A DNA stretch of 64,000 bases from an uncultured Gammaproteobacteria bacterium (GCA_964356225.1 CAYHGA010000002.1:14894-78893); one strand, 5' to 3'; positions 25,502 through 58,215 are shown, counted from the stretch's first letter. Notes: a model not told the origin generated them from the sequence alone. A program made the numbers and translations.

Positions 25502-26481
25502 AATGATTTATAAACTCTTAGAGTTTCCTGGGCGACGTTATCCCAACTAAATTTGGCTAACTGCTTTGTGCCGGCGGCGGTTAGCCGGTCGCGGTCTTTA
25601 ATTGCCTGGGTGATACCGGCGGCAATAGATTCGACGGACAAGGGATCAAAATAGGCGGCGGCTTCACCCGCTACTTCGGGCAGACTAGAAGTGTTTGAAC
25701 AAGCGACGGGAACATGATAATAAAAAGCCTCTAAGATCGGTAGACCGAATCCTTCATAAAGACTGGGGTATACAAAAGCCGAGGCCCCGGCCAAATAATT
25801 GACCAGAGCCTGATCGGAAACGTAACCTAAGTCGCTTCCTTCACCGACGACGATCAGTTTTTGCCCCAATTTGGCACAGGCAAGTTTGAGGCGGTCGATG
25901 TTCTTGCGGGGCTGGCGGGCGCCGATGGCAAAAACATAATTGGCGTTTTTGGTAATCTGGGGCTGAAGTGATAAATATTTACCCGGTAGGGCCTCGGGGA
26001 TAACAACCGTCCGGCCGATGGTGCTTGGAAATAATCTGTGCAAGTCAGCGGCGGTTGAATTGGAGACACAAATAATTTTGTCACATTCTTTGACCACCCA
26101 TTTCATGCGGGCGGCGTGGACGGCCACAATTTGGGGATCGGTTTCAGCCGGGTATAAAAATGGGGACAGGTCGTGAACGGTGGTAACCTTTTTGGCCTGG
26201 CTGGGTCCTTGAGTCCAGTCTGATGAATGATAAATGTTAACTTCCCCAATAAATGACTCTACGTTAACTAAATGCAGAACGTTCCATAAATAATGCATGA
26301 CGGTGGGGGGGATTGGGAGGGACACTCCTTTAAGGATTATCCTTTTTAGTTCGGCGAGGCGACGGAGAGAGTAGCCGAAAGGAACCAGAATGTCCTGCGG
26401 CAGATGTTGCAGCAGTTCCAAAGTGTAATTGGAAACTCCTGTGCCGTAAATAATTGATGAAACGTCTAAACCAACTTTCAT
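25495..26481 (-). CDS. Glycosyltransferase family 4 (GT-B)
   Basis: 328 aa. GFGLPILEAFYYHVPVACSNTSSLPEVAGEAAAYFDP. Confidence 0.75.
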   Translation of the reverse strand: MKVGLDVSSIIYGTGVSNYTLELLQHLPQDILVPFGYSLRRLAELKRIILKGVSLPIPPTVMHYLWNVLHLVNVESFIGEVNIYHSSDWTQGPSQAKKVTTVHDLSPFLYPAETDPQIVAVHAARMKWVVKECDKIICVSNSTAADLHRLFPSTIGRTVVIPEALPGKYLSLQPQITKNANYVFAIGARQPRKNIDRLKLACAKLGQKLIVVGEGSDLGYVSDQALVNYLAGASAFVYPSLYEGFGLPILEAFYYHVPVACSNTSSLPEVAGEAAAYFDPLSVESIAAGITQAIKDRDRLTAAGTKQLAKFSWDNVAQETLRVYKSLC

Positions 26482-27797
26482 TTGTGATAATAGTCTATAA
26501 AACCCACTCCTTCAAAATTATACCTTTTTTGCATGGCATAGCCGTCGGCTTGAATCCGGGCGTCAATTTTGTATTGCGGGTCAGTCAGACCGGTGAGATA
26601 TTGAAAAAGGTAAAAATCAGATAAATCTGCACGCAATGATGAGGCAGTAATCACCGGCAGGTCGGGCGCGTACCAGGTCATGGGGGCAAAGGGTCCTGGA
26701 AATTTAACTACCATGGTAGCGGGCCGGGTGCGGATAAATTCCAGAGCTTGGCGCCACTGTTCCCTTTGCAACCTTGGGCGGGTGAAATATGTGTAGTTGC
26801 CGACGATGGCGATATAAATAAGCAAAGTAAAAAATATTTTGAGAAAACGCCTGGTTGTTTCGGCCAAGAGGATGATTAAAGCCGGCAGAGTAAAAATCAG
26901 GCGGAAGGGTTGGGTTTGGGGGATAAAAAATGAAAGGATAATGCTGCCGATAATTGGAGCAAACAACCAGGTATAGAGCAGGCGGCGTTTGCCACGGGCA
27001 AGAAGTAACCCCGCAGCTGTAACGAGGAGGACGAAGGCAATATATACGGCGTATATATATCTAGGAATGAGGTCTATGCGGCCAGCTACAAATTTAAATA
27101 GAATCAAGGGCAAAGATTTGAGCGGAGAAAGGGTTAAGATACTTCGCCACCCCGGTAAATAAGTATCGATGTTGGCTCCCGATTGGAGCTGGTGCTGGAA
27201 TTGGGGAAGCCAGGGCGTGTAAAGTGCAATACTTAATGCGCAATTTATAATACTTAATTTAAGTAATTTTCTGTCGAAAATAAGCGAATATGCCAGTTGG
27301 GAGAAAATGAGAAATACCGCAGCATAGTGGGTATAAAGCATGATAGTGTTGATGAGAAAAAGGGACCAATGTTTTTTATAGAAGGCTGACATGGAGAGAG
27401 TTCCTAATAATGCCAATAAAGAATACATGCGAAATTCCTGGGAATAGTAGACGTGGAAAGGATTAATAGCGAGTAAGAAGGCCGCGGTAAGACCTAATTT
27501 GGGGTTAATGGCGTAAGCTAGATAATAAATTACTGCAATATTTAAAATGCCGAAAGAAATAGGGAGTAGCCGCAGCCAAGTTTCGGATCGGCCGAGTTGC
27601 AGCCAATAGTGAGCCAAAAAATAAAATAATGGCGGGTGGAAATCACCCGGACGATTAGACCAGATCTGGGAAAGAGACATTGAAGAGAGTTGGGCCTGGG
27701 AAGCTTCATCCAACCAGAAACTTTGATCTAATTTAATCAAGCGCAAACCCGACCCCAGAATAAGAATTAAGATCAGGAAGAACTTTTCTTTACCCAT
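26478..27797 (-). CDS. GT-C fold membrane glycosyltransferase (ArnT/PMT-like). Its stop overlaps the start of the GT2 upstream.
   Basis: 439 aa, about 11 transmembrane helices. The first extracytoplasmic loop FWLDEASQAQLSS carries the D-E motif typical of GT39/GT83 enzymes. Confidence 0.55.
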   Translation of the reverse strand: MGKEKFFLILILILGSGLRLIKLDQSFWLDEASQAQLSSMSLSQIWSNRPGDFHPPLFYFLAHYWLQLGRSETWLRLLPISFGILNIAVIYYLAYAINPKLGLTAAFLLAINPFHVYYSQEFRMYSLLALLGTLSMSAFYKKHWSLFLINTIMLYTHYAAVFLIFSQLAYSLIFDRKLLKLSIINCALSIALYTPWLPQFQHQLQSGANIDTYLPGWRSILTLSPLKSLPLILFKFVAGRIDLIPRYIYAVYIAFVLLVTAAGLLLARGKRRLLYTWLFAPIIGSIILSFFIPQTQPFRLIFTLPALIILLAETTRRFLKIFFTLLIYIAIVGNYTYFTRPRLQREQWRQALEFIRTRPATMVVKFPGPFAPMTWYAPDLPVITASSLRADLSDFYLFQYLTGLTDPQYKIDARIQADGYAMQKRYNFEGVGFIDYYHK

Positions 27798-28423
27798 GTT
27801 ACAGTATGATAAATAGCCATTAAATAACTTAAGAATAATCCGTGCCAGCCGTCCAAAAACCCCAGGTGCCAGATATATCGGCGAAAAAAATCAAAAAATG
27901 GGTTCATGCTTCTGGTTTCGCGGGAGGTGTAACCGTTCATTTTATCCATGAATTCTTCGACGGAATGATAACTGTGATGAATTTTTAGCCCCCGTAATTG
28001 GCCTACCGGTCCGGGAGTGACGATCTCTTCGTGAACCGGGTTTTCCCAATGACCGCGAGTTCTGTCGTAAAGCCAGATATGAGTGTCTGCCGGAGGTTCC
28101 CAATTGGTGTGACGCATTGCTTTGCCGAAAATAATATTTAATCTGGGAATTTTATATGCAGTGTATCGTTCCTGGTTCACGGTTCGTAGTTCATGGATAA
28201 GCTGCGGTGACAATTCTTCGTCTGAATCCAAAGACAACACCCAATTATATTTGCATTTACTGGCAGCAAAGTTTTTCTGATCGGCGAAATTTACAAACTT
28301 ATGGTCGGCATTTGTTATTATGACTACATCGTCGGATACTTGCCGAGCACTTTCTAGGCAACTTGGAAGAATAATAGATTTGTCCTTAGCAATTATGGAA
28401 ACAGAGATCATAAAGTTTAGCAA
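27773..28423 (-). CDS. Glycosyltransferase family 2 (small, GT-A)
   Basis: 216 aa. ISVSIIAKDKSIILPSCLES...VVIITNADH...LSLDSDEE carries the DxD region. Confidence 0.6.
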   Translation of the reverse strand: MLNFMISVSIIAKDKSIILPSCLESARQVSDDVVIITNADHKFVNFADQKNFAASKCKYNWVLSLDSDEELSPQLIHELRTVNQERYTAYKIPRLNIIFGKAMRHTNWEPPADTHIWLYDRTRGHWENPVHEEIVTPGPVGQLRGLKIHHSYHSVEEFMDKMNGYTSRETRSMNPFFDFFRRYIWHLGFLDGWHGLFLSYLMAIYHTVTWVKKSSS

Positions 28424-29339
28424 TTGTATCCCAAGAAAATTTTGACGCTTGTTGGCGGGGTTTATCTCCCCAGTTTGTATTCAAGGCTTTTTTTAGAGTT
28501 TGAGCGTACGCTGCGGTGTCTGTAGGATCGACGAAGAGCCCGGCTTCTCCTACTATCTCACGACGGATAGGGTCATCTGTAGCGACCACGGCCAATCCAC
28601 TGGCCATGGCCTCCAGCATGGCGATGCCGAAAGATTCTTGAGGTGACGTAGGATAAGAAAATAAATCGCATGCGGTGTAAACTCTCGGCATATCTTTGTG
28701 GTCAAAAGTCATATTCCCGCCTTTACCGACTAATAAAACCGGATAAGGGCTGGCCTTTAAAAGTAAACCCTGTCTTTTAAAAGAATCCACAACGCCTACA
28801 TTAAGAATTATGTGTTTAGATTTACTGATGGCTAAAGGTTTTACGCGTGGGTTGAATTTATCTAAATCTACGCCGTTGGGAATGGTCACTGTTTTGACCC
28901 AAGGATTAATGTATTTAGCCCACACACATTGAAAATTAGTCAGCCCTATAAATACGTCAGGAAAAACCCAAAGGTTAAGTTTGTCGTCCCAGCCAAATCC
29001 GGACTGGCCGGGAATAATTAACTTGGCTCCATAAACCGTGCACCAAAGTTTAGCTAGTATGGCGTCAAGCCTGCCGTTGGTGGAAATTATAATTTCGGTG
29101 TTGGGGTTGACATGATCCCAAATATTTTTGCGAATACTAACCTGATGCCCCAGATTCTTTAGCCGCCGGGATAACTCATCAACGTAAGTTTCGACCCCCC
29201 TGGTGTTGACCCCCTGCCATTGGCTGAGAAAGGCTATTTTCATGTTACAATTTGCGAATATGAAGCTGACTGTAATTATACCAGCGTACAATGAAGAAAA
29301 GACAGTTGCCCAGGTACTTCGAAAGGTGCAATCAAACAA
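28386..29339 (-). CDS. Glycosyltransferase family 4. The probable true start is Met33 at about 29243 (MKIAFLSQW).
   Basis: GIAMLEAMASGLAVVATDDPIRREIVGEAGLFVDP is the GT4 C-domain. The N-terminal 32 codons overlap the divergent gene. Confidence 0.7.
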   Translation of the reverse strand: MFDCTFRSTWATVFSSLYAGIITVSFIFANCNMKIAFLSQWQGVNTRGVETYVDELSRRLKNLGHQVSIRKNIWDHVNPNTEIIISTNGRLDAILAKLWCTVYGAKLIIPGQSGFGWDDKLNLWVFPDVFIGLTNFQCVWAKYINPWVKTVTIPNGVDLDKFNPRVKPLAISKSKHIILNVGVVDSFKRQGLLLKASPYPVLLVGKGGNMTFDHKDMPRVYTACDLFSYPTSPQESFGIAMLEAMASGLAVVATDDPIRREIVGEAGLFVDPTDTAAYAQTLKKALNTNWGDKPRQQASKFSWDTIAKLYDLCFHNC

Positions 29340-29949
29340 ATTAGTTAAAGAAATAATCGTGGTGAATGACGGATCGACTGACAGAACAAAAGCTCAAATC
29401 TCAAAAGTCAAAGCTCAAAAGTACAGGTTAAAACTTATAGATAAAAAGATAAACGAGGGGAAGGGGGCGGCGGTGAGGGACGCACTGAAAATTGCCACGG
29501 GCGACGTGTTTATTATTCAAGACGCGGATTTGGAATATGATCCTGATGAATACAAATTATTGCTGGAGCCGATTCTAAAGAAAAAAGCAGACGTGGTATT
29601 TGGATCCAGGTTTGTGGGTAATCAACCGCACAGAGTTTTATATTTTTGGCACTATGTGGGGAATAAATTTATCACTCTACTGTCAAATTGTCTGACAAAT
29701 TTGAATTTGACGGATATCGAGACCTGCTACAAAGCTTTTACTAAAGACGTGGCTGATAAGTTGAATTTGCAGGAAAAGAGATTTGGATTTGAACCGGAGT
29801 TTACAATTAAAGCGGCTAAAATGGGAGTACGGATTTATGAAGTGGGGATCAGCTATTCCGGTAGAAGTTACGCAGAAGGGAAAAAGATCAATTGGAAGGA
29901 TGGATTGGTGACATTATGGTGTTTGGTTAAGTATTTTGCGTTTGATTGA
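29203..29949 (+). CDS. GT2 polyprenyl-phosphate hexosyltransferase (DPM1/GtrB-like). The likely start is MKLTVII at about 29260.
   Basis: LTVIIPAYNEEKTVAQVL...VVNDGSTDRT...IIQDADLEYDP is the classic DPM1-like catalytic core. Confidence 0.75.
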   Translation: MLTPCHWLRKAIFMLQFANMKLTVIIPAYNEEKTVAQVLRKVQSNKLVKEIIVVNDGSTDRTKAQISKVKAQKYRLKLIDKKINEGKGAAVRDALKIATGDVFIIQDADLEYDPDEYKLLLEPILKKKADVVFGSRFVGNQPHRVLYFWHYVGNKFITLLSNCLTNLNLTDIETCYKAFTKDVADKLNLQEKRFGFEPEFTIKAAKMGVRIYEVGISYSGRSYAEGKKINWKDGLVTLWCLVKYFAFD

Positions 29950-30768
29950 TTTTAACGGTGTTTGCCAAGTAGCGTTAAGAATAAAAAATAGGCTACGCTG
30001 GTTCCAGGGAGTAGGTACTATTTGTGGTCTCGGAAAGTAAAAACATTTAGGGTATTCAAAGTCAGACAGAAGGGGCTTCCCCAAGTCATATTTAAATTTT
30101 GGACTGCGCCAAAATACTTCTTTATCGTGGGAGCGGGAGGATCTGGCCAGGTGCGTCATATGCAGATACGGGGCGCTTATAAAAGCGATCCCCTGTGGAT
30201 CTCTGTCCTGAATTTTGACACTCTTAGAATCGCAATAACTCTGAAGTTGGCCTGGGGGATTAGAAACTTGTAAGCCCGGGATTTTTTTTAGGTTGATGAA
30301 TCTGAGATTATAATGACCCGTCTTGCCGGCGATCGAATACCGACCTGCGCTAGGGGACGAGATGTGAAAAATATCTCCCACACAATTTAGAGTGGGGACG
30401 ACTATGGAATCGTAAAGATGACCTTGGGTTTTTATAAAATTTACCACTCTTTGAATTGAACTGTCCGGCCAAATTTCGTCTCCGTCTAAAATCATTAACC
30501 AGTCAGCTTGTGTTTCTTCTAACATATGATTACGAGCTTTAGATAGGTCGGACTCGTTTTTGGTGACTTTGATTGCTTTAAATTTAATTCTGGGATTGTT
30601 GACACTTTTTATTATATTAGCCGTCCTGTCAGTGGAGCCAGTGTCCCATATTATTATTTCATCGATATGGTTGATCACCGATGTGAGTGAATACCAAATC
30701 CAATTTTCCTCGTTTCTAACTATGGTGTGTGCGACAATTTTCATATTGCCAGAAACTAGCTGCAGCAA
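29914..30768 (-). CDS. Glycosyltransferase family 2
   Basis: 284 aa. HTIVRNEENWIWYSLTSVINHIDEIIIWDTGSTDRT...LDGDEIW (DxD). Confidence 0.7.
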   Translation of the reverse strand: MLQLVSGNMKIVAHTIVRNEENWIWYSLTSVINHIDEIIIWDTGSTDRTANIIKSVNNPRIKFKAIKVTKNESDLSKARNHMLEETQADWLMILDGDEIWPDSSIQRVVNFIKTQGHLYDSIVVPTLNCVGDIFHISSPSAGRYSIAGKTGHYNLRFINLKKIPGLQVSNPPGQLQSYCDSKSVKIQDRDPQGIAFISAPYLHMTHLARSSRSHDKEVFWRSPKFKYDLGKPLLSDFEYPKCFYFPRPQIVPTPWNQRSLFFILNATWQTPLKSIKRKILNQTP

Positions 30769-31984
30769 AGAATATATGGCTAATTAATACCGCTGCTGCG
30801 GTACCAATGATTCCGAAACGGGGAATAAGCAGTGATCCCATTGTAATAACTATAGCTGCCTGGGTTAGGTTAGCCCAAAAGAAAAATTGGGGGAGGTGAT
30901 AAAAATATAATATGCTATCACGCAGCGGATTAAGCGATGTAAAAAGTGTCAGAGATGCCAAAAGGATAAGAAAAGGGGCGAAAGCTGCAGAAAAATCACG
31001 GCCAGTAAGCCAGAGTACGATAAGGGCCGTGGGAATCATTATCAGGGCCACTATGAGACTTGTACCAAGGGAAAATAATCCGGCTTTTAATAAGTACCTG
31101 CTGGAATAGGTTGAATTGGTAAATGACGCAAATTTGGGAGCGGTAACTGCTCCCAACGCAGAAGCGAATTGGGGTAAAAAGGCTACCATGGTCACCGCCA
31201 AAGAGTAAACTCCGGTATCTGAAAGGGTGAGAAACCGTGCTGTGAGAAGGGTATCAATTCTACCGGAAAGTGATCCTGTGATGGTAAAGGCTGCTGTCCA
31301 TTTATTGAAATGCCAAAACTTCTGAATTTGCTCCCTGGTGATCTTGGCCTTAATTATATTTATTAGTGGCAACCAAATTATGGAAATTAAAAAACCAAAT
31401 AAAGGTGCCGATGCAAAAAGGATAAGACCTAAATATGAATCAATTTTAACCACTGACAACAGTAACCCAAATAGAATGAGACGGAAAAAGTTGGCTCCAA
31501 ATTGAGTACCTCCCCAAAGGATAAATTTTTGTTGACCCTGAAAAATATAGGTTGCTAGCCCAAACAAAAGAATGGCAAAGATGCCAAAACCTACTATCGG
31601 AAGTAGCGGGGCGACTTCCGGTTGATGCAGTACCAGATTTCCAATCGGGTGTGAAAAAATCCATAAAATTACACAAAAAAATGCTCCAATCGCTATTTTT
31701 GTTTGAATAGCTATTTTTGCAAACGGCCAATAGGCATTATTACGGTTATTTTCGGCTACAAATTTAACCAGCCCTTGTCCCATGCCCACATCTGCAAATG
31801 AAACTAGTAAAGTTAGAATGGAGACTGCGACAGAAAATAGTCCAAATTCATGAGAACCTATAGTTCTGGCAAGGAGAAGATAAAATACTGCTCCCAACCC
31901 TGCAGTGCCAAAGGTAGAAACAACTGTAATGACTGACTGGCGGAAAGTGTGGGTCATAATTACACTTTTGATTCGGGAGTACAT
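30716..31984 (-). CDS. Wzx-type oligosaccharide flippase (MOP superfamily, Polysacc_synt)
   Basis: 422 aa, about 12 transmembrane helices. The N-terminal region LLLARTIGSHEFGLFSVAVSILTLLVSFADVGMGQGLVKFVA is characteristic of Wzx. Confidence 0.55.
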   Translation of the reverse strand: MYSRIKSVIMTHTFRQSVITVVSTFGTAGLGAVFYLLLARTIGSHEFGLFSVAVSILTLLVSFADVGMGQGLVKFVAENNRNNAYWPFAKIAIQTKIAIGAFFCVILWIFSHPIGNLVLHQPEVAPLLPIVGFGIFAILLFGLATYIFQGQQKFILWGGTQFGANFFRLILFGLLLSVVKIDSYLGLILFASAPLFGFLISIIWLPLINIIKAKITREQIQKFWHFNKWTAAFTITGSLSGRIDTLLTARFLTLSDTGVYSLAVTMVAFLPQFASALGAVTAPKFASFTNSTYSSRYLLKAGLFSLGTSLIVALIMIPTALIVLWLTGRDFSAAFAPFLILLASLTLFTSLNPLRDSILYFYHLPQFFFWANLTQAAIVITMGSLLIPRFGIIGTAAAVLISHIFFAAASFWQYENCRTHHS

Positions 31985-31991: not shown

Positions 31992-32723
31992 TTATATCCT
32001 TTTTGGAAATGGCTTCACACTTAAACAATAAACTGAAGTGCCAAATGGCAAGTTTATATGTTGGGCGAATAGGGATTCGAATTTAAGCAATATATATAAA
32101 ACGAAGTTGAATGGTTTCCATATAAGTTGAATATCCGATTTTTTTTTAAAATTTAACTTGCGAAACAAAAACGTTGGCAAGAAAAGACTTGAATTGAAAT
32201 AGGTTATTCTTAGAAGTGAAAAGTTAGCTTCTGTAATAATTTTTTTTAACTGCGGTAAACTGAACCTTCTTGTTCCGTGAACCACTTTGTCATGAGTACC
32301 TTTTAGGAACAGAAAGGCTGGCACTCGAACTAGAAAAATACCCCCGGGGCGGAGAACTCTAAATACTTCATCTACAGTCTTGTGTACATTTACAGCTCTG
32401 TGATACAAAACATCTAAGCTAACAACTAAATCAAATTTTGAGGGTGCAAAGGGGAGATGATTAGAGTCGGCTTGCCGTAAAACTTCAATGGGGTATCGGT
32501 GGGCTAACTTGATTGCTTCATGACTAATATCTATTCCTGTGACTCGACCATACTTTTGCAAGACTACGGTAGTGCCTCCTGTGCCGCAACCTAAATCTAG
32601 GATAGAAATCTGTTTTCGGGGAAGAAATTTGTCAAGAAGGTTCAGAGTGAATTCCCTATTTGCTTTATACCACCAATGATTGTTTTCAAGTCTAGATATA
32701 TTGAGGTATTCACTTTTTTGCAT
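31992..32723 (-). CDS. Class I SAM-dependent methyltransferase
   Basis: 243 aa. ILDLGCGTGGTTVVL is SAM motif I, and RPGGIFLV is the post-II motif. Confidence 0.7.
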   Translation of the reverse strand: MQKSEYLNISRLENNHWWYKANREFTLNLLDKFLPRKQISILDLGCGTGGTTVVLQKYGRVTGIDISHEAIKLAHRYPIEVLRQADSNHLPFAPSKFDLVVSLDVLYHRAVNVHKTVDEVFRVLRPGGIFLVRVPAFLFLKGTHDKVVHGTRRFSLPQLKKIITEANFSLLRITYFNSSLFLPTFLFRKLNFKKKSDIQLIWKPFNFVLYILLKFESLFAQHINLPFGTSVYCLSVKPFPKRI

Positions 32724-46391: not shown

Positions 46392-46395
46392 TTTA

Positions 46396-46530: not shown

Positions 46531-46532
46531 AT

Positions 46533-51246: not shown

Positions 51247-51266
51247 GCAGGTTTGATTTTAACTCT

Positions 51267-51959
51267 TTATCTGGTTTTTGAACACTTTAAAAAAGCCGTT
51301 GATAGTCCGGGGGACTGATATTCTATGTCTAGCTGGTGGTTAAAAAAATTCTGAAATAGCGGGCGGCGGCGAAGTACCCATTTGGAAAGATACATGTTCA
51401 AAGCGTATAGAACCTCCCACAACTTTCCCTTAATAAAAAGCTTGTTGACAGTTAGACCTGCCTGTTGGCTAAACTGCCTTAATTTTTCTAATGAGTAATG
51501 TCTGTGTTTAATTAACCACCAGGCGGGATCGAATAACTTTGACGGCCAAGAGGCAAAAGGTGTAGACAAGTAAAAATGGCCACCAGGTTTCAGAACACGG
51601 TAAACTTCACGAAACATTCTTTTTTCAGTCCGGGGCGGGATATGCTCTAAAACCTCCCAACAAACGACTGTGTTAAAACTATTGTTGGCAAACGGCAGTT
51701 TAGTGGCGTCAGCTACCCGAAATTTTACCCGTGAGTTTTTAATGTTAGATTTAATGGTTTCTAGGTCACCTTCGGTAACCTCACTAGCAACAATCGACCC
51801 CGCTCCCCTAGTTAGAAAATTTAATTCGCACCACCCGTAACCGCTGCCAATATCAAGAATAGTTTTATTTTTTACGTCAGAATTGTCGACAAAATCCATG
51901 CTAAACTTAAGCCGGCCATGGATATCGGTTGAGGGCCTTTCTGAAAGAATATTTTTCAT
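51267..51959 (-). CDS. Class I SAM-dependent methyltransferase
   Basis: 230 aa. ILDIGSGYGWCELNFL (motif I) ... VVCWEVLEHI ... KPGGHFYLSTP. Confidence 0.7.
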   Translation of the reverse strand: MKNILSERPSTDIHGRLKFSMDFVDNSDVKNKTILDIGSGYGWCELNFLTRGAGSIVASEVTEGDLETIKSNIKNSRVKFRVADATKLPFANNSFNTVVCWEVLEHIPPRTEKRMFREVYRVLKPGGHFYLSTPFASWPSKLFDPAWWLIKHRHYSLEKLRQFSQQAGLTVNKLFIKGKLWEVLYALNMYLSKWVLRRRPLFQNFFNHQLDIEYQSPGLSTAFLKCSKTR

Positions 51960-53501
51960 TTAAATTTTACGGGCATATATTTCAAGAGAATCAAAAAAAT
52001 TTATGGTTAAAAACGGTTTTCCCTTAAGCGCGGATAACAATTTATATATTGGTGGAAATATATTTTTTAGACGGGTTATCCAGTAATTTAAGCTAAAAGT
52101 CCAACTGTATTTCCCGAGCTTTTCAATTTTATACCCTAAAGACAAAAGAAGTAAAGATAATGTTTCTTCTGTAAAATAATAAATATGATCTGGACGAATG
52201 TGCCACCAATTTTCACCCAATAATTTTGAAATTAGGCTCCCTATATCGGGCGTCACTAGACATAACACCCCGTCTTTATTCAGAATTTTGTGAATGTCTG
52301 CTAAAAGTTTTCTGGGGGAAGATACGTGTTCAATCACGTCCAGGCAAGTTACGGCATCAAATGGCTTCCCCTTGAGCTTAACAGTTTCAAGTGTACCTTG
52401 AATAATATTTAGTCCGAATTTTTCCCTCCCAATTCTAGAAGCCCATTTTGATGGCTCAATTCCGATTGACTCCCACTTATGTCTGTGCGCAATTTCTAAA
52501 AGTGTTCCTGTAGCGCATCCAATATCCAAAAGCTTTCCAGAAAATTTATGTAGATTTTCTATCTTCTTAAATATTCTTTCATGCGTCATTAACCTTGCCG
52601 TTCTTTCATTTTCATAATCAGGGTCTACAAAGCCTGAATATCTTTCTACTAGTTTTTTATCTTTCTCTCTGGGAGAACAGTAAAGTAAATTACAATCCAA
52701 GCATTTAACTATTTGAGAATGGTCACCATATGAATTGTCGGTTATGTAGTACTTATCTTTGGCAATTCCCCTTTTTTGGTAAACAACTCTTGCTTTATCG
52801 TTACTACAAATATCGCAAATATGATTTGATAAACTGTTTATTTGAAATGTTTTTTTCATGAATCTATGATATTTTGTTAAAAGAAAAACCCAGGGAATTA
52901 CCAATGATTTTTTGAATTGTGCTTGAGAAAGATTTTCTAAAAACTCACTTCGACTCGAAAAATTATCCATGCAGATGTAATTTCTACCAAGCTCGTATTT
53001 AGTGTGAGCGTCACTGCCGATACACACAATTTTCCCTATTTTCTTTGCAAACTTTTCTGCTTTTAAATTGTCCCATGGCTTAATTGTTCTACCATTAAAG
53101 ACTTCAATTATGTCTATGTCATCAATATTCAAGGTTAAAGAATTTTCGTTAATGGCGGTTTTCCTTGTGGTGGTGTCAAACGGATGCGGTAAATACACAA
53201 GCCCTCCTTGGTGTTTAATTTCTTTAATTGTTTGCCTCATTGAAAGACCTGAAGGAATGAATTTTTTTAAAAATAAGCCTATTATCTCTCCTTCTTTACT
53301 CAAGATCTCCTCACCCACAATTACTTTAAATGGGGCAATTCTTTGAAGCCGTAGGGCGCCTTCAATTTGATTGTGGTCGGTAACAGCTAAAACATCAATC
53401 TTTTTCTGGATGCATTTATCTATTAAATCTTTGTAAGAGATCGAACAGTCGTACGAATACTTTGTATGAACATGTAATTCAACTTTAATTTTGGCAGACA
53501 T
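51960..53501 (-). CDS. Fusion protein: N-terminal PHP-family phosphoesterase, Cys4 zinc-ribbon, C-terminal class I SAM methyltransferase
   Basis: 513 aa. ELHVHTKYSYDCS...AVTDHN...GSDAHT are the His/Asp metal motifs of a PHP domain. The middle has CDICSND...CLDCNLLYC. The C-terminus has LLDIGCATGTLLEIA...AVTCLDVIEHV...KDGVLCLVTP. Confidence 0.65.
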   Translation of the reverse strand: MSAKIKVELHVHTKYSYDCSISYKDLIDKCIQKKIDVLAVTDHNQIEGALRLQRIAPFKVIVGEEILSKEGEIIGLFLKKFIPSGLSMRQTIKEIKHQGGLVYLPHPFDTTTRKTAINENSLTLNIDDIDIIEVFNGRTIKPWDNLKAEKFAKKIGKIVCIGSDAHTKYELGRNYICMDNFSSRSEFLENLSQAQFKKSLVIPWVFLLTKYHRFMKKTFQINSLSNHICDICSNDKARVVYQKRGIAKDKYYITDNSYGDHSQIVKCLDCNLLYCSPREKDKKLVERYSGFVDPDYENERTARLMTHERIFKKIENLHKFSGKLLDIGCATGTLLEIAHRHKWESIGIEPSKWASRIGREKFGLNIIQGTLETVKLKGKPFDAVTCLDVIEHVSSPRKLLADIHKILNKDGVLCLVTPDIGSLISKLLGENWWHIRPDHIYYFTEETLSLLLLSLGYKIEKLGKYSWTFSLNYWITRLKNIFPPIYKLLSALKGKPFLTINFFDSLEIYARKI

Positions 53502-53504
53502 TGA

Positions 53505-54383
53505 CTATAAGTAGAAAAGTATAAATAAAAGAATAATGACGATGGTATTTAAGATAAACTTATAACTAAAAACGAATGATTCAATATTTCTTGATTTGGC
53601 TTCACCGGATTTTACTTTTTTTACTATCCAAAGAAAATATAACACTATAAACGGAATTCCCATTAAAAATGACCGCTGATATTTATAAATTTCTCTAGCA
53701 ATAAAAATTGTTGATAGAGCTATATAAAAATACATCATGATCAACAGGCTTTTCAGAGAATAGGTATCAAATGTGTTTCTGTATGGAACTAGTTTTTTAC
53801 CATAAAACTTGAGCTCACCGTATCTTTTTGCGGTCATTAAAACTGCTCCTATAGACCAGGTTGATAATAAAATTAAAAGAGGGGGGAATTCTGATTTAAC
53901 TATCACAAACCAACCCAGGAGAAATCTGATAGGATTATTTAATGATTCTGAAATTACGTCTAAATAAGGTATATTTTTTAGTCTTATAGGTCTAATGTTA
54001 TACAAAATTCCGGCGATCCAGAGGGATCCAAGGACGTAAAGGAAATTGACATTATAAAAAATGTTAGCTACGAGCAAACTTCCAAATAATAGAATAAAGG
54101 CTAGTATTTCTGCTCTAAAAATTGTTATTTTGCCTGAAGGAATTGGTCTTGTTTTTTTGTCCGGGTGTCTTTTATCGAATTCTACATCTGCGATCTGGTT
54201 GACAATGTAATTAACCGAAGAAATTAGAGACGCCAGGATAAAAGCTCCAACTGCTTGTATCACAACTTGCGATCCAATGGATTTGCTTTGACTAAGAAAA
54301 ATTGCCGATATTATTCCAGCGATAATAAACAAGTTTTTGAACCAGTGATCAACCCGCATCAGCCTGATGTAACTATAGAACAT
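53505..54383 (-). CDS. UbiA-family polyprenyl-phosphate prenyl/phosphoribosyl-transferase (resembles decaprenyl-phosphate 5-phosphoribosyltransferase)
   Basis: 292 aa, 8-9 transmembrane helices. NQIADVEFDKRHPDKKTRPIPSGKI matches the N-x-x-x-D-x-x-x-D ... R-P-[IL]-[PA]-S-G UbiA active-site motif. N-terminal RVDHWFKNLFIIAG resembles the RPxQWxKN start of DPPR synthases. Confidence 0.7.
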   Translation of the reverse strand: MFYSYIRLMRVDHWFKNLFIIAGIISAIFLSQSKSIGSQVVIQAVGAFILASLISSVNYIVNQIADVEFDKRHPDKKTRPIPSGKITIFRAEILAFILLFGSLLVANIFYNVNFLYVLGSLWIAGILYNIRPIRLKNIPYLDVISESLNNPIRFLLGWFVIVKSEFPPLLILLSTWSIGAVLMTAKRYGELKFYGKKLVPYRNTFDTYSLKSLLIMMYFYIALSTIFIAREIYKYQRSFLMGIPFIVLYFLWIVKKVKSGEAKSRNIESFVFSYKFILNTIVIILLFILFYL

Positions 54384-55668
54384 TACTTTGGCTCAAAAAT
54401 TTCTTAACTTCTTTAAATACTGCATTTTGATCTTGATTTGCGTCAATTATTTGAAGTTTGATAAGTCTAGGCAAGCTTTGATATATTTTTTGCTGCTCAT
54501 AGTAATAATCGGGGGTAAATTCCTGTTCGCGTTTAAAAATAGTTGTTGGTCCTGCTGACATCATAAAGGCTATGTCTGATTTGGGTAATAATTTTACAAA
54601 AAATTTAAATGCCCACACCGGACAGTACCCGTAGTAAAAAAGATTGGCCCAAATGTCAGTGTAAAACCTGTCTGCGATGACAAAATCATTACTGGTAACA
54701 ATTGGGTATATTTTAAAAATATATGCTGCCCAAATATCAATAAAGGCAGGTATGAACCATAATTTAAAAAGAGGGTTTTTATTACGCCTAACTGGACCAG
54801 ACGGTGAACTACCCGTTGTTAATCTCAAAAATCCAATCAATGGCTTAAACAAAAAATACGTAAACATTGATTCGCCTGCGTTGACTCTTTTTCCATGGCT
54901 AATTAAATAATCAGTTAGAAGTTTTACTTGAGTGCTTTTCCCGGTACCATCAATCCCTGTAAACGATATCAAAAATCCCCTTCTTTCATAGGGTAAAGTT
55001 TTATTAACCAGATATCTAACACGGAAAAAGAGATAATAAGCTAAACTCACAAAATCGAACTTCTCTAGGTAAGAATATAGTATTAATTTCACTGGTAAAA
55101 ATAGGGGAAATTTTGGCTTTGGTTGCTGGTTTTTCATCCACTTTATGAAATTTATAAATGTGTTGTTCCAATTATACTGAACGGTCTGTTGTATGAGTTC
55201 TTGAGAATTCTTTATTTTTCTCCATTGGGGGAAAAACATTTCAAAGTCATCCTGTGTGAAATAGGTCTTTTCGAAAATAACGTTTATCATAACTAAAAAG
55301 GCATCCCATGTGGCGTCCACACAGTTTTTGGTTGAATTTAGCCAGATTTTTTTAACATCCAAATATTTTTCCTTGCGCCATGTAAAATCCTGGTGTAAAT
55401 CGATTTTTATTCTCCCGGGCCTGTTTAAATTAACCTGTATTCCCGCAATCCGTCCTCCTAATGCTTGATCGTGTGAAGATTGTTTGTAGCCTAATCTCTC
55501 AAGACTGTAAATCGATCCTTCAAAATCTTTAGACCGAACCAGAATATCAAGATCATCAGGAGCCCCTGTATTGGGATTATACCGCGTTAACAAATAATTT
55601 ATTCCTCGTAAATCCTGTAAAGTCTGCCTCATTTTTTTAATCATATCTTCTTTTTCATGAACAACCAA
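54373..55668 (-). CDS. Two-domain protein: N-terminal nucleotidyltransferase-fold (NTase/LicD-like) domain fused to a thymidylate-kinase-like P-loop kinase domain
   Basis: 431 aa. N-terminus GINYLLTRYNPNTGAPDDLDILV has a Gly...D-x-D NTase-fold signature. C-terminus FLISFTGIDGTGKSTQVKLLTDYL is a Tmk-type Walker A. Confidence 0.5.
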   Translation of the reverse strand: MVVHEKEDMIKKMRQTLQDLRGINYLLTRYNPNTGAPDDLDILVRSKDFEGSIYSLERLGYKQSSHDQALGGRIAGIQVNLNRPGRIKIDLHQDFTWRKEKYLDVKKIWLNSTKNCVDATWDAFLVMINVIFEKTYFTQDDFEMFFPQWRKIKNSQELIQQTVQYNWNNTFINFIKWMKNQQPKPKFPLFLPVKLILYSYLEKFDFVSLAYYLFFRVRYLVNKTLPYERRGFLISFTGIDGTGKSTQVKLLTDYLISHGKRVNAGESMFTYFLFKPLIGFLRLTTGSSPSGPVRRNKNPLFKLWFIPAFIDIWAAYIFKIYPIVTSNDFVIADRFYTDIWANLFYYGYCPVWAFKFFVKLLPKSDIAFMMSAGPTTIFKREQEFTPDYYYEQQKIYQSLPRLIKLQIIDANQDQNAVFKEVKKFLSQSNVL

Positions 55669-57173
55669 CCTTCTGGAGTCTCTTCTACGATTTTGAATTT
55701 TTCAAAGAGGTATCGATCAATTGTTTGATTATAGTTTTGCATTTTCGGTGTTCTCATTTTAGGGCCGTTGTTGGGATCATAAACAACGACTTTGACATTG
55801 TTTTTTTCGATCTTGTCAATAAATTCTAGTTGTTCTTCTTCTGTGGTAATAAACCCGGCCAGGAGATTATTAAACTGGGTAGGACTGGACCTGTGTGACA
55901 GAAAATAAAGACCTGCCATGTAAGGTAAAACCAGCACAGATTCGGTTGAAGTGGAATTTTCTCGTAAGAAAGTTGCTGATCTTTTCAAACTTTCTGCTGA
56001 AGGCTTTGTTGAGTTTGCAGGGTATTTGGAATTGAGATTAAACGTCTGATCAACTATTTGTATCTTATGGTCATTAAAGTGTATCCACCAGACCGATTGG
56101 GATATAGCGGCAACAAACAAGCCAATAATTAAACCATGCAATATAATCCTGGTTTTAAAATTCCGGGTATTTTTAAGAAGAAACACTCCCAAAACAAGAA
56201 ATGGCATTCCCCCTTTTACGAAATGTCCCATATCGCTCCGGCCAAAAACGTAAGGCAGAGCGAGTATTCCTGCAAGAGTAAGAATCGGAATTTCTATATT
56301 GTTTTTGATTATGACAGCTGTTTTTTTTAGAACCAGGAGGATACTAACCAAATATGTAGCTATGATGGCATATCCGTAATAGGCCGTGAATGTGTTACTC
56401 ACAGTGGCTAAATCAAACCGCAAAGGAATTAAATCTAATATGGATGGGAAAGATAAATGGTGAAGTCGGGTAATGGTTATTGCGCCCATAAAGACTTGGT
56501 TTATGAAAGCGCCAAAAATTCCCAAGTTGACCGTCCATAAGACTATAGCCAAAAGCGGTAATCCAAAACCGATTCCCATAAACAGTGAATACACGAACCA
56601 CCTTCTAATCCAGTCTTGGCGGGAAACCAAAAAAAGATGGATCGGCAAAACAACTATGGCAGCTACCCCAAAAGTACCAGGGATGTCTAAACGGAAAAGG
56701 CTAGACAATCCCAGCACCGAACCCGAACAACTAAAGAGCCACTTATTTTTTTGGTCAACGGCTTGAAGAAAAAGATACAAACCCAAAAAAATGAAGGTCA
56801 TCAAAAAAAGACGTTCGATGTTGACATCTAAAAATGTAATCAAAGTAGCTGGAATAGTAGATAATTTCGTTGACGCAAACCTTTTGCAGATGAGGAAAAT
56901 TAAAACTGGCGTAAATGAAAAAATGACGCTGGAAATAATTCTAGGTACTTGTACTGACTCACCGAAAAATTTGAATATTAAAGCATAAAAATAGTTATCC
57001 ATAGGAGGAAATATGGCAAAAAAATCACGATACGGGATGTCTCCAGTTAAAATTCTCCGAGCATTGTGCAGACTCTCCCCTTCGTCCACTAATCCAAAAC
57101 CATAGAACGAGAAAAGAGTAGTTTTAGAAAGAGCTACAAGAAAAATTAGAATTATGATCAGGTTACTTTTCAT
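55641..57173 (-). CDS. GT-C fold membrane glycosyltransferase (ArnT/PMT-like). Its start overlaps the stop of a GtrB-like GT2.
   Basis: 510 aa, about 13 transmembrane helices. First loop LVDEGESLHNARRILTGDIPYRDFF has the D-E-x-x-x-x-x-A motif of GT39/GT83 enzymes. Confidence 0.55.
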   Translation of the reverse strand: MKSNLIIILIFLVALSKTTLFSFYGFGLVDEGESLHNARRILTGDIPYRDFFAIFPPMDNYFYALIFKFFGESVQVPRIISSVIFSFTPVLIFLICKRFASTKLSTIPATLITFLDVNIERLFLMTFIFLGLYLFLQAVDQKNKWLFSCSGSVLGLSSLFRLDIPGTFGVAAIVVLPIHLFLVSRQDWIRRWFVYSLFMGIGFGLPLLAIVLWTVNLGIFGAFINQVFMGAITITRLHHLSFPSILDLIPLRFDLATVSNTFTAYYGYAIIATYLVSILLVLKKTAVIIKNNIEIPILTLAGILALPYVFGRSDMGHFVKGGMPFLVLGVFLLKNTRNFKTRIILHGLIIGLFVAAISQSVWWIHFNDHKIQIVDQTFNLNSKYPANSTKPSAESLKRSATFLRENSTSTESVLVLPYMAGLYFLSHRSSPTQFNNLLAGFITTEEEQLEFIDKIEKNNVKVVVYDPNNGPKMRTPKMQNYNQTIDRYLFEKFKIVEETPEGWLFMKKKI

Positions 57174-58215
57174 GAGCGATCAATGTTGATAATTTGCTCG
57201 GATTGAACAACAGAAGAATAATCAGTAGATCGGTAATCAAAAGGTTAACCACCGGCTCATATAAACCCACCCAGTCTCTGTGTTTGACTGATTTATATAT
57301 GCCCACAAATACGGAAGGGATTATCAAATTGACGTAGACTATCCATATGAATATTTTGAACAGATTTCTTTTGAGATCAATCCAAGTATAGAGATTATTT
57401 TGAAGATGAGAAAAATATACTTTAGTGAGATTATATTTTCGTTTACGGAGTAACTCTTTTAAGCTTGTTACGTGATGGTGATACAGGACGGCTTGAGGAA
57501 CAAAGGCAAATTGTTGATGACCATGAAGCACTAAAAGCTTTAAAAAATCCAATTCTAGAAACATCTCAAAGTTTTTGGTTAACTCCCATAATTGTTTACG
57601 TCTATATAGGCACCGCCCGGATGGCGGGATTCTATCGGTTTCATATTTGCATAAAAAATAACTAGTAAGAGATTTAATAATCGTTGATTCAACTGATGGA
57701 GTAAGCCATTGATATAATCCGTCCCGTTGGAGAACGTCAAAAGATAAATATCGTTCGATAGGAGCAGAATTCGGACCAGCTCCTTCTTTGGTAAAGCTAG
57801 CAACTATTCTAATATCTTGTTCCAAAGGAGTAACTAGTTGTTTAAAAAAATCTTTACTTATTAGTTCTACGTCTGCATCCAGATACATGAAGTACTTACC
57901 CGTTGCCGCCCTAAATCCGATCATTTTACCGATTTCACCGTGTTTTTGGCCGTTTCGTAAAAGCAGTACTGGATATTTTTTGGCAATTTTTAAGGTGTGA
58001 TCTGTAGAATCATCATCTACTACCAATACTTCTAATTTGTCTTTAGGATAATCCTGACCAAAAATTGAGTCTAAACATTTCTTGATATTTTTTCCCTCGT
58101 TAAAGGTTGGGGCAACGACTGAGATTTTTGGCCAGATCATTTTTCTAAATATTTTGTAAACAACAGTCCTTTTGCAAAGGTGTAAGCATAACTTAAATGT
58201 GATAAATAAATGCAC
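57163..58215 (-). CDS. GT2 glycosyltransferase with C-terminal transmembrane helices (GtrB/DPM1-like)
   Basis: 350 aa. ISVVAPTFNEGKNIKKCLDSI...LEVLVVDDDSTDHT...YLDADVEL, plus two C-terminal helices. Confidence 0.7.
   Translation of the reverse strand: MHLFITFKLCLHLCKRTVVYKIFRKMIWPKISVVAPTFNEGKNIKKCLDSIFGQDYPKDKLEVLVVDDDSTDHTLKIAKKYPVLLLRNGQKHGEIGKMIGFRAATGKYFMYLDADVELISKDFFKQLVTPLEQDIRIVASFTKEGAGPNSAPIERYLSFDVLQRDGLYQWLTPSVESTIIKSLTSYFLCKYETDRIPPSGRCLYRRKQLWELTKNFEMFLELDFLKLLVLHGHQQFAFVPQAVLYHHHVTSLKELLRKRKYNLTKVYFSHLQNNLYTWIDLKRNLFKIFIWIVYVNLIIPSVFVGIYKSVKHRDWVGLYEPVVNLLITDLLIILLLFNPSKLSTLIAHEK

Follow-up and report, generated by a model that had tools for sequence, protein, structure and literature searches.

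Gtr (GtrA/GtrB/GtrC), ArnC/ArnT, CsbB/YfhO and GacI/GacL are multi-component transmembrane glycosylation systems (PMC8035078), and loci with more than one synthase/transferase pair have already been characterised. Specifically, the side chain of the S. mutans SCC relies on SccN/SccM and SccP/SccQ; biochemical work has established Glc-P-Und as the product of both synthases, alpha-Glc-P-Und in the case of SccP (PMC11754754). Moreover, the three-component addition of pentofuranose, exemplified by ORF15/14/12 of Citrobacter youngae, combines a PPPRS, a flippase of the MATE or SMR type and a GT-C of family GT136 (PMC11127046).

The window, that is, the whole 64,000-nucleotide stretch of DNA analysed here, contains a glycan supercluster that spans 50 kb or more, and its host is a groundwater member of the Microgenomates (CPR/Patescibacteria). 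The initial annotation had proposed at least three modules in which a GT2 gene precedes a GT-C gene, the logic of the S. mutans locus, where one polysaccharide locus holds more than one GT-A polyprenyl-P-hexose synthase, each with its outside GT-C. Three neighbour pairs are conserved, but a single one of their upstream GT2s resembles a synthase in sequence; the window differs from S. mutans also in its CPR host and in GT-Cs of PMT_2-like families. Because just one pair looks like an inside-make/outside-attach module, the locus follows a known strategy and is a rather ordinary case of it. The six ORFs lie exactly where they had been annotated:

26478-27797, minus strand: GT-C no. 1, PMT_2/GT39-like, 439 aa, overlapping GT2 no. 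1 by 25 nt
27773-28423, minus strand: GT2 no. 1, SunS/GmaR-like, soluble, short form, not DPM1-like
35371-36696, minus strand: GT-C no. 2, polytopic GT-C fold enzyme, 441 aa, overlapping GT2 no. 2 by 40 nt
36657-37373, minus strand: GT2 no. 2, candidate polyprenyl-phosphate sugar synthase, DPM1/ArnC/GtrB-like, 238 aa
55641-57173, minus strand: GT-C no. 3, PMT_2 family, 510 aa, overlapping GT2 no. 3 by 11 nt
57163-58215, minus strand: GT2 no. 3, membrane-anchored Glyco_tranf_2_3 type, not DPM1-like

The explanation that on balance appears probable is a cytoplasmic lipid-linked assembly followed by GT-C additions, with one true pair module and the other pairs as operon neighbours. In the first stage, a lipid-linked glycan would be assembled in the cytoplasm by a Bac_transf initiator, GDP-mannose supply, GT4s, GT2s, methyltransferases and an acetyltransferase, together with two MOP flippases and a Wzy_C protein. 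In the second stage, at least four GT-C enzymes would add sugars extracytoplasmically, putatively using lipid-phosphate-linked donors at the outer face. These monosaccharide donors would most likely come from the three DPM1-like GT2s (29203-29949, 36657-37373 and 61987-62787) and from the UbiA-type protein, with the PHP-domain protein beside the latter helping donor formation. For GT2s no. 1 and no. 3, conversely, the likeliest acceptor would be lipid-linked or bound to the membrane, not bare polyprenyl phosphate, with the reaction taking place at the cytoplasmic face. We infer the assignment of donors to GT-Cs, the phosphatase role of the PHP protein and all substrates. The genes concerned, beyond the three pairs, are as follows:

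15043-16845, minus strand: initiating phosphoglycosyl transferase (Bac_transf) plus mannose-1-P guanylyltransferase, left end of the glycan locus (PF02397 match at 5e-59; NTP_transferase and ManC beta-helix domains also matched)
20827-22167, minus strand: fourth GT-C, PMT_2-like; the gene ahead of it is Wzy_C, not a GT2
29203-29949, plus strand: strongest DPM1-like GT2 of the window, which may make the donor of GT-C no. 1 or of other GT-Cs
30716-31984, minus strand: MOP/Wzx-type flippase (Polysacc_synt, Polysacc_synt_3)
51960-53501, minus strand: PHP phosphoesterase domain fused to a SAM methyltransferase (PF02811, PF13263, Methyltransf_23)
53505-54383, minus strand: UbiA-family polyprenyl-phosphate 5-phosphoribosyltransferase homologue
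61987-62787, minus strand: third DPM1-like GT2, followed by a 589-aa single-TM protein that is not a GT-C
62762-63988: second copy of the MOP/Wzx-type flippase

At the level of the locus, the proposed use of lipid-linked donors by extracytoplasmic GT-Cs agrees with the presence of three DPM1-like GT2s, a UbiA homologue and four GT-Cs. The GT-C-like nature of the membrane partners is likewise backed for all three, which have 7-9 TM helices by crude hydropathy counts (about nine in GT-C no. 3), against the 7-13 expected of GT-C enzymes, and the three-dimensional GT-C fold was found for one of them. The N-terminus of GT-C no. 1 matches Agl23 (TIGR03663, 1.4e-11), its L012 orthologue matches PMT_2 with 50.5 bits, and PF13231 occurs in many of its homologues, some of which are named "glycosyl transferase family 39" by their sources; GT-C no. 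3 matches PF13231 with 30.7 bits, over the 26.1 cut-off. The fourth GT-C matches PMT_2 in Pfam at E 6e-4, and its orthologues in the related loci L018 and L061 are annotated as PMT/PMT_2 and also come after Wzy_C. The acidic loop-1 motif expected of GT-Cs is present as conserved acidic residues after TM1 in all three families: W28-L29-D30-E31 is invariant in the family of GT-C no. 1; in that of GT-C no. 2, PE(37)..E41 is nearly invariant and D57 invariant, the PE aligning with the DE of GT-C no. 3, whose D30, in "GLVDEGES", is invariant.

GT2 subtypes were separated by their top NCBIfam and PDB matches, BLAST paralogy groups and motif alignments, and a protein was placed in the ArnC/GtrB/DPMS/PpgS/AglJ clade when its top characterised matches were polyprenyl-P sugar synthases aligned across the whole catalytic domain. 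GT2 no. 2 and 29203-29949 belong there. The former matches PF00535 with 65 bits, covering positions 12-166 of the 168 in the profile, has ArnC (5.8e-18) and PgfS (4.4e-16) as its top two NCBIfam matches, and has ArnC 9hwj (2.7e-16, residues 7-211), GtrB 5ekp and DPMS 5mlz as top PDB matches. The latter, whose start likely lies at 29260, matches AglJ (6.9e-37) and PpgS (3.1e-23) in NCBIfam and DPMS 5mlz (8e-21, residues 15-228) as its top PDB entry. The 61987-62787 protein belongs to the clade weakly, with PgfS as top NCBIfam match, and is related by BLAST to 36657-37373 (E about 5e-14) and 29203-29949 (2.5e-13). Common to these three GT2s is a signature made of NxGxGxA after the first Asp motif and D-(T/I)-x-x-x-(F/Y/M)-(R/K) after the DxD, in which N72, G74, G76, A78 and D153 are invariant across the three proteins and their orthologues; a signature of the NxGxGxA plus DTxxxFR type also occurs in human DPM1.

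From these comparisons, only 36657-37373/35371-36696 looks like a synthase-plus-GT-C module in the sense of Gtr, ArnC-ArnT or SccN-SccM, so that the role of each upstream GT2 as polyprenyl-P-sugar synthase for the downstream GT-C is retained for this pair and lost for the other two, which are off-clade. In keeping with these systems, GT2 no. 2 aligns with ArnC and GtrB over the whole catalytic domain and its gene overlaps that of a GT-C fold enzyme, but GtrB and ArnC have a C-terminal TM hairpin, whereas no TM helix is predicted in GT2 no. 2, which in this respect resembles the soluble DPM1/PpgS-type enzymes. The earlier view that two of the GT2s are DPM1/GtrB-like with C-terminal helices is thus contradicted, as the DPM1-like one is TM-less and the helix-bearing 57163-58215 is not DPM1-like. 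A further difference is that GT-C no. 2 is not an orthologue of GtrC, YfhO or ArnT by sequence. The GtrA-family flippase (PF04138) had no match in any protein scanned, and the sole small polytopic membrane protein, of 107 aa at 42547-42870, gave no Pfam match at E up to 10.

As candidate members of the ArnC/GtrB/DPMS clade, 27773-28423 and 57163-58215 were rejected, both lying outside it by every sequence test run. GT2 no. 1, which probably starts downstream of the listed position (MISVS, about 28411), scores 21.5 bits against PF00535, under the 23.3 cut-off, returned nothing in the NCBIfam search and has GmaR 22ao as top PDB match (2.5e-6), while its full-length orthologues are bona fide PF00535 proteins with TIGR04283 and SunS as top NCBIfam matches. 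GT2 no. 3, probably starting at MIWPK (58140; the gene call on an identical contig has 325 aa), matches PF00535 with 93 bits, over profile positions 1-132 only, and PF13641; its top NCBIfam matches are MftF, PRK10073 and HpnB, ArnC and PgfS reaching merely 23-24 bits, and BLAST groups it with its paralogues in the window at 39808-40827 (1e-15) and 58137-59144. Its top PDB match, in a list from which GtrB and ArnC are missing, is PcManGT 6yv7 (4.9e-14), reportedly described by Gandini et al. in 2020 as dolichyl-phosphate dependent. Among solved or curated proteins, SunS and GmaR are nearest to GT2 no. 1 and PcManGT is nearest to GT2 no. 3, with 25-30% identity and in the GT-A domain only. A processive GT2 synthase would have told against the original proposal, but no GT2 here resembles one.

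That each of the three GT2s nonetheless makes a polyprenyl-P monosaccharide for its own GT-C, giving at least three Gtr-like modules of which two would have non-canonical synthases, is unlikely. Neither GT2 no. 1 nor no. 3 matches characterised polyprenyl-P synthases preferentially, and the alignments of both lack the NxGxGxA and DTxxxFR signature; DPMS aligns only to residues 30-148 of GT2 no. 3, the generic nucleotide-binding half, and the copies of GT2 no. 1 in the window and in L016 have lost a 17-aa segment that includes the nucleotide-binding motif "VDSGSTD". The same reading draws some support from architecture, as GT2 no. 3 resembles GtrB in joining a GT-A domain to two predicted C-terminal TM helices and a hydrophobic helix is conserved at the C-terminus of GT2 no. 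1, and from the existence of non-canonical Und-P-sugar synthases such as SccP. Placement outside the DPM1 clade does not prove that a GT2 is unable to glycosylate polyprenyl phosphate, a point that counts against the two-stage explanation and is illustrated by SccP and by the dolichyl-phosphate dependence reported for PcManGT. It is further favoured by adjacencies that persist at 40-60% identity, in 5/7 loci for pair 1, 3/5 for pair 2 and 11/16 for pair 3. The co-occurrence of the pairs elsewhere, proposed as a check at the outset, does extend to related Microgenomates genomes, but the surrounding operons are equally conserved; because whole operons are syntenic, conserved adjacency is non-specific evidence. 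GT4 neighbours are conserved as well as the GT2/GT-C adjacencies.

Within pair 1, GT2 no. 1 is at most one gene away from GT-C no. 1 in all seven loci, and orthologues of 29203-29949 precede the pair by 2-3 genes in L012, L016 and L017, occurring in the flank of GT-C no. 1 in only 4/7 loci. The more consistent link of GT-C no. 1 with GT2 no. 1 than with the DPM1-like orthologue is an observation that runs against the two-stage explanation. In pair 3, GT2 no. 3 is in the flank of GT-C no. 3 in 15/16 loci, a link at least as tight as that with UbiA, which runs against that explanation too.

It is similarly improbable that there is no specific pairing at all, GT2 and GT-C genes being merely densely packed and the product of 36657-37373 entering a common pool open to any GT-C. 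Overlaps of 20-40 nt had been ascribed to all three pairs, which holds for the first two but not for the third; the annotated GT-C starts are backed by full-length homologue coverage, and such overlaps are found again in orthologous loci, with 40 nt in L004, 31-34 nt in L016-L018 and 4-8 nt in L013/L014. Stop/start overlap is, however, the norm here, being found at 27/33 co-directional junctions of the locus, and is therefore no special mark of GT2/GT-C pairs, as expected without pairing. In the same direction, GT-C no. 2 is intact in L008/L009, where only decayed remnants of GT2 no. 2 are left, and in L007, where that GT2 has been replaced and relocated, distant paralogues of GT-C no. 2 come after GT-C no. 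1 with no GT2 ahead, and the DPM1-like genes 29203-29949 and 61987-62787 adjoin no GT-C. Against a lack of pairing stands the 40-nt overlap of the DPM1-like GT2 with GT-C no. 2, identical in L004/L010 and L011 at 49-54% protein identity. Permutation tests on a locus of 40 genes, 10 of them GT2s, place GT2/GT-C adjacency only marginally above chance and can be read both ways: the three co-directional adjacencies compare with 0.90 expected if the GT-Cs are restricted to the four with sequence support (P=0.03), which disfavours the absence of pairing, and with 1.8 expected if they include all eight polytopic candidates (P=0.24), which favours it. The unproven candidates are the following:

32710-35244, minus strand: 844-aa polytopic protein, candidate GT-C, always downstream of GT-C no. 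2
42867-51246, minus strand: three polytopic proteins of 543, 1031 and 1174 aa (49615-51246, 46533-49628 and 42867-46391), candidate GT-Cs downstream of the UbiA cassette

Pfam, NCBIfam and PDB-sequence searches with these four proteins were empty except for a weak MmpA match (9e-9) of 32710-35244, in which about 10 TM helices are predicted and whose position next to GT-C no. 2 is kept in L004, L007, L008 and L011. The two giants of the second group share 41% identity, and the trio is kept after the UbiA cassette in related loci; the AF2 model of an N-terminal domain from this group, built from 3 sequences, reached a pLDDT of only 37.9 and is unusable.

Least probable of all is that the GT-Cs are PMT-like protein O-glycosyltransferases that would move polyprenyl-P-mannose onto S-layer, pilin or other envelope proteins and would not be polysaccharide side-chain transferases.

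Returning to the two-stage explanation, its UbiA-type donor branch would have a precedent in the pentofuranose system of C. youngae and would also parallel the mycobacterial DPPRS/Rv3807c/Aft-Emb system, as a DPPRS homologue, GT-C no. 3 and further polytopic proteins share a conserved cassette, and MOP flippases occur in the locus, though outside this cassette. The UbiA protein matches PF01040 with 83.5 bits; its top NCBIfam match is decaprenyl-phosphate phosphoribosyltransferase (DPPRS; 8.4e-28, 97.6 bits, below the curated cut-off of 234), and its sole PDB match is DPPRS 8j8j (6.9e-12), with the Asp-rich motif aligned, NQIADVEFDKRHPDKKTRPIPSG against NDVRDVEADREHPTKRFRPIAAG. In this motif, N-Q-I-A-D-V-E-F-D, Q replaces the second-position D of the characterised N-D-x-x-D-x-x-x-D, which is a difference from the published systems, as is the PMT_2-like GT-C no. 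3. The sub-threshold score and this Q are observations that weigh against the explanation. The PHP-methyltransferase fusion accompanies UbiA in 11/11 UbiA-bearing loci, directly downstream in 10, and both accompany GT-C no. 3 in 11/13 informative loci; two loci keep GT-C no. 3 with no UbiA within 6 kb, a further point against the explanation. The fusion protein may be the 5-phosphate phosphatase of a pentose-lipid pathway, in place of the HAD PRP domain or Rv3807c-type enzyme of the published systems; a HAD or PAP2 protein was not found in the UbiA cassette, nor a DprE1/E2 or ORF13-like epimerase in the window.

Two further genes flank pair 3:

54373-55668, minus strand: NTP_transf_5-like plus P-loop (thymidylate-kinase-like) protein, adjoining GT-C no. 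3, with weak Pfam matches only
58137-59144, minus strand: paralogous membrane-anchored GT2 (PF00535 and PF13641; top NCBIfam match MftF, 2.7e-21)

In most related loci the latter gene immediately precedes GT2 no. 3. Setting aside L030 and L034, which end at its position, the counterpart of 54373-55668, as one or two genes, is beside GT-C no. 3 in all related loci that extend past the gene.

The glycan locus starts near 15 kb and takes up the rest of the window, with a dcw cluster (FtsA, MurG, PBP, MraW) on its left side, and all three proposed pairs of a GT2 and a GT-C-like membrane protein lie within it. The six ORFs are present exactly where the initial annotation had placed them, all on the minus strand:

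26478-27797, minus strand: GT-C no. 1 (pair 1)
27773-28423, minus strand: GT2 no. 1 (pair 1)
35371-36696, minus strand: GT-C no. 2 (pair 2)
36657-37373, minus strand: GT2 no. 2 (pair 2)
55641-57173, minus strand: GT-C no. 3 (pair 3)
57163-58215, minus strand: GT2 no. 3 (pair 3)

The locus further codes for a Bac_transf initiating transferase and a mannose-1-P guanylyltransferase, and holds about eight GT4s, ten GT2s, seven methyltransferases, one acetyltransferase, two MOP flippases, one Wzy_C protein and one UbiA protein, together with four GT-Cs supported by sequence and four large polytopic proteins that match no family. Contigs identical to the window derive from 0.1-µm-filtered Hainich groundwater metagenomes, and the homologues are labelled Amesbacteria, Woesebacteria, Daviesbacteria or "Patescibacteria group". 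From these, the source is a Microgenomates-type CPR bacterium. The G+C content is about 0.44-0.49 at 1-30 kb, the part that holds pair 1, and 0.33-0.39 at 32-60 kb, the part that holds pairs 2 and 3; from this drop, the right-hand half of the locus may have a different origin.

The initial observation of recurrent pairs was partly confirmed, and its interpretation partly supported. In all three pairs, the upstream GT2 runs into the gene of its membrane partner, by 25 nt in pair 1 and 40 nt in pair 2, within the claimed 20-40 nt, whereas the claim is wrong for pair 3, in which the measured overlap is 11 nt. The GT-C start codons are backed by homologues covering 100% of each query, and two of the GT2 ORFs are likely shorter than the longest ORF, starting with MISVS near 28411 and with MIWPK at 58140; for the latter, the gene caller on an identical contig gives 325 aa. 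Since stop and start overlap in 27 of the 33 co-directional junctions, overlapping characterises the locus as a whole rather than these pairs. When the order of 40 genes, including 10 GT2s, was shuffled, the three co-directional GT2-to-GT-C adjacencies compared with 0.90 expected if four GT-Cs are counted (P=0.03) and with 1.8 expected if eight polytopic candidates are counted (P=0.24), and the adjacency statistics within the window are marginal.

The membrane partners are GT-C enzymes in all three cases, as the initial annotation had proposed, and each family keeps acidic residues in the loop after TM1: an invariant WLDE in GT-C no. 1, a nearly invariant PE..E and an invariant D57 in GT-C no. 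2, and the invariant D of VDEGE in GT-C no. 3. The first ground for refutation named in the initial annotation, membrane partners without the GT-C loop-1 motif and fold, therefore does not apply. Specifically, GT-C no. 3 passes the Pfam PMT_2 model (30.7 bits against a cut-off of 26.1). The Pfam search of the GT-C no. 1 protein itself gave no match; its family is large, many members carry PF13231 and some are named GT39 by their sources, its orthologue in L012 (L numbers denote homologous loci in related genomes) reaches 50.5 bits on PMT_2, and its N-terminus matches Agl23. Searches of PDB sequences by hmmsearch profile and by single sequence returned nothing useful for the GT-C families A1, A4 and A5, for family A2 of the 844-aa polytopic protein (32710-35244) or for the giant polytopic protein at 46533-49628, and fold comparison was the only approach that worked.

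The three GT2s are of three kinds, and by sequence only GT2 no. 2 groups with the polyprenyl-phosphate sugar synthases. Its best real solved relatives are ArnC (2.7e-16, residues 7-211 of 238), GtrB and DPMS, and its top two NCBIfam matches are ArnC and PgfS, while matches to TAL-effector structures are compositional artefacts with zero significant stretches. Moreover, it forms one BLAST group (E about 1e-13) with 29203-29949 and 61987-62787, and the N-x-G-x-G-x-A and D-T-x-x-x-F-R positions are invariant and common to this DPM1-like trio. TM prediction found no TM helix in GT2 no. 2, an architecture that is like that of soluble DPM1/PpgS-type enzymes and unlike that of GtrB.

GT2 no. 1 falls below the Pfam GT2 cut-off and has GmaR as its best solved relative; among curated families, its full-length orthologues, which are bona fide PF00535 proteins, match the TIGR04283 arsenosugar GT and the SunS peptide S-glycosyltransferase best. 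Both this protein and its 62% identical counterpart L016:4384-5031 are without 17 residues, including the "VDSGSTD" nucleotide-binding segment kept in orthologues of 250-260 aa. Conservation at this level in another genome indicates that the short form is probably not a pseudogene, but its catalysis may be altered or lost. GT2 no. 3, paralogous to 39808-40827 and 58137-59144, has two predicted C-terminal TM helices and matches PF00535 over the first 132 profile positions only, in addition to Glyco_tranf_2_3. Its best curated matches are MftF, PRK10073 and HpnB, with ArnC and PgfS at just 23-24 bits, and its best solved relative is PcManGT (6yv7); the alignment with DPMS is confined to the generic N-terminal half, and its PDB matches include neither GtrB nor ArnC. 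Hence, the two features that had been assigned jointly to two of the GT2s, a DPM1/GtrB-like domain and C-terminal helices, are found on different proteins, GT2 no. 2 being DPM1-like with no TM helix and GT2 no. 3 having two TM helices and not being DPM1-like. An argument from the catalytic base, separating hydroxyl-acceptor from phosphate-acceptor GT2s, was abandoned, as an Asp is conserved at the same position in the DPM1-like group too.

Conservation across loci is a stronger signal than the statistics within the window. The genes of pair 1 are adjacent in five of seven distinct loci, with overlaps of 31-34 nt in L016, L017, L018 and L060; in L012 a 276-aa ORF separates them, and in L061 an epimerase gene on the opposite strand does so. 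Pair 2 is adjacent with the same 40-nt overlap in three of five lineages (the window, the L004 group and L011), a sample limited to five because a profile scan of the genome contigs with A1 gave only three loci. In L007, a different GT2 lies upstream of GT-C no. 2 and the 36657-like gene is about 6 kb off on the other strand, while in L008 and L009 (5764-5980 in both) the DPM1-like GT2 has decayed to three short tblastn remnants of about 215 nt before an intact GT-C ORF, a natural "knock-out" of the synthase half of the pair. Lastly, of the 16 loci informative for pair 3, 11 have the two genes adjacent and 15 have the GT2 within the flank. However, the whole operon is syntenic in every case and the neighbouring GT4 genes are equally conserved, so that conserved adjacency speaks for operon membership and not for a specific donor-acceptor relationship.

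Pair 2 is most likely a genuine synthase-plus-GT-C module: as expected from family membership, the soluble DPM1-like enzyme would attach a hexose to polyprenyl phosphate and, after flipping, the overlapping GT-C would move it to an extracytoplasmic acceptor. Pairs 1 and 3 are conserved operon neighbours, in which the GT2 most likely acts on the cytoplasmic side on a lipid-linked glycan or another membrane-bound acceptor, and the GT-C would receive its donor from a DPM1-like enzyme or the UbiA pathway. This mechanism as a whole is held with moderate confidence, its main weakness being that GT2 no. 1 and no. 3 are linked to their GT-Cs at least as tightly as the candidate donor genes are. Such linkage, together with the existence of non-canonical polyprenyl-P-sugar synthases such as SccP, which makes alpha-Glc-P-Und (PMC11754754), is the reason for retaining as an unlikely alternative the full model of the initial annotation, in which each upstream GT2 makes the polyprenyl-P sugar for its GT-C; it suits GT2 no. 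2, but the best matches of the other two lie elsewhere. Little probability is likewise attached to a joint reading in which the SunS/GmaR-like GT2 family, with its short form missing part of the nucleotide-binding motif, and the Glyco_tranf_2_3-type family with two C-terminal TM helices would each serve the neighbouring GT-C exclusively, as unrecognised polyprenyl-phosphate sugar synthases or as obligatory partners that are not catalytic, and the UbiA/PHP-methyltransferase/giant-polytopic cassette would build an arabinan- or ribofuranan-like (pentofuranose) polymer on the CPR envelope; if the GT2s were so dedicated, the tight and widespread GT2-to-GT-C coupling conserved in Microgenomates would mark new classes of transmembrane glycosylation module. 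A processive-synthase reading is dismissed, as none of the three GT2s looks processive: there is no multi-TM channel and no QxxRW motif, and the closest matches are non-processive.

Under the favoured mechanism, the donors of GT-C no. 1 and no. 3 would come from other genes. Among the genes of the window, 29203-29949 (plus strand) is the most strongly DPM1-like: it matches AglJ (6.9e-37), PpgS (3.1e-23) and, over the whole catalytic domain, DPMS 5mlz (8e-21), and its orthologue lies two to three genes upstream of pair 1 in L012, L016 and L017. Its role as dedicated donor synthase of GT-C no. 1 was downgraded, since the orthologue is absent from the pair 1 flanks in three of seven loci (L018, L060 and L061). 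The UbiA gene (53505-54383) lies two genes downstream of GT-C no. 3, within a conserved cassette that includes two giant paralogues:

42867-59144, minus strand: conserved cassette, also in L013, L014, L020, L021, L024, L026, L028 and L031; gene order GT2 (58137), GT2 (57163), GT-C (55641), NTP_transf_5/P-loop kinase, UbiA (DPPRS-like), PHP plus methyltransferase, methyltransferase, 543-aa polytopic protein, giant polytopic proteins
42867-46391 and 46533-49628: giant paralogues of 1174 and 1031 aa, 41% identical over about 830 aa

The only solved relative of the UbiA protein is the mycobacterial decaprenyl-phosphate phosphoribosyltransferase 8j8j (6.9e-12), to whose segment NDVRDVEADREHPTKRFRPIAAG its segment NQIADVEFDKRHPDKKTRPIPSG aligns. 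The PHP-phosphoesterase/methyltransferase fusion (51960-53501) follows, and both genes accompany GT-C no. 3 in 11 of the 13 loci with enough downstream sequence, with the 543-aa and giant polytopic proteins further downstream. In each giant, a polytopic domain at the N-terminus is followed by a large extracytoplasmic region, with a TM anchor at the C-terminus, and neither has a Pfam, NCBIfam or PDB match; an AF2 model of the first 460 aa of 46533-49628, built with two paralogues from the window (three sequences), was discarded at a pLDDT of 37.9. The N-termini of the four large polytopic proteins may resemble the AftD/DUF3367 motif, a resemblance that found no support from Pfam. Three-component pentofuranose systems (PPPRS, flippase and GT-C) are described in Citrobacter and compared with the mycobacterial arabinan pathway (PMC11127046), and the cassette looks like a variant of them. 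It differs in that the candidate phosphatase is of another family (a PHP domain), no epimerase is in view, and one position of the UbiA motif is different. In L015, an IS1595-family transposase gene (2987-3769) separates the GT2 no. 3 orthologue from the remainder of the cassette, the 6 kb examined contain no UbiA/PHP genes, and the opposite strand carries a DPM1-like GT2.

That a GT-A synthase works together with a flippase and a GT-C is a well-established logic, known from Gtr, ArnC/ArnT, CsbB/YfhO, GacI/GacL and the Ppm/PMT systems of mycobacteria. Moreover, a locus of S. mutans has two experimentally proven pairs, SccN/SccM and SccP/SccQ (PMC11754754). Since streptococci, enterobacteria and mycobacteria already provide characterised examples of this logic and of multi-pair loci, no new principle is involved; a full-text literature search returned no paper combining Patescibacteria with GT-C, so that the CPR setting appears undescribed, yet not surprising. 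If the favoured mechanism is right, more than 50 kb of the genome of an uncultivated, host-dependent CPR bacterium is devoted to a surface glycan. Several GT-C enzymes would complete this glycan outside the membrane, drawing on at least two lipid-linked donor pathways of different chemistry, one for hexose (DPM1-like GT2s) and one for pentose (UbiA). The results could serve CPR envelope annotation and provide candidate gene sets for heterologous reconstitution; for annotation, "GT2 next to GT-C" is insufficient to call a Gtr-like module, and the GT2 subfamily needs checking.

Other arrangements occur in and around the locus. A Wzy_C gene of the O-antigen ligase/polymerase-like type, not a GT2, directly precedes the fourth, PMT_2-like GT-C at 20827-22167 (window 20827-23399, minus strand), an order kept in the related L018 and L061. 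In more distant relatives, a GT-C no. 2 paralogue (28-32% identity) directly or almost directly follows the GT-C no. 1 orthologue, so that the two GT-C genes stand in tandem and the second is not preceded by a GT2 (L012:5983-7344, L016:7395-8684 and L017:6356-7627). The 578-aa ORF at 40818-42554 (minus strand) consists of two tandem, clearly similar GT2 domains, and a single-domain relative of it stands in for the DPM1-like GT2 before GT-C no. 2 in L007. Lastly, the third DPM1-like GT2 (61987-62787) overlaps by 8 nt with the gene that follows it, whose 589-aa product has a single TM helix at its N-terminus and matches no family (window 60225-62787, minus strand); this arrangement recurs in L023 and L028, and it could be a synthase coupled to a non-GT-C extracytoplasmic enzyme.
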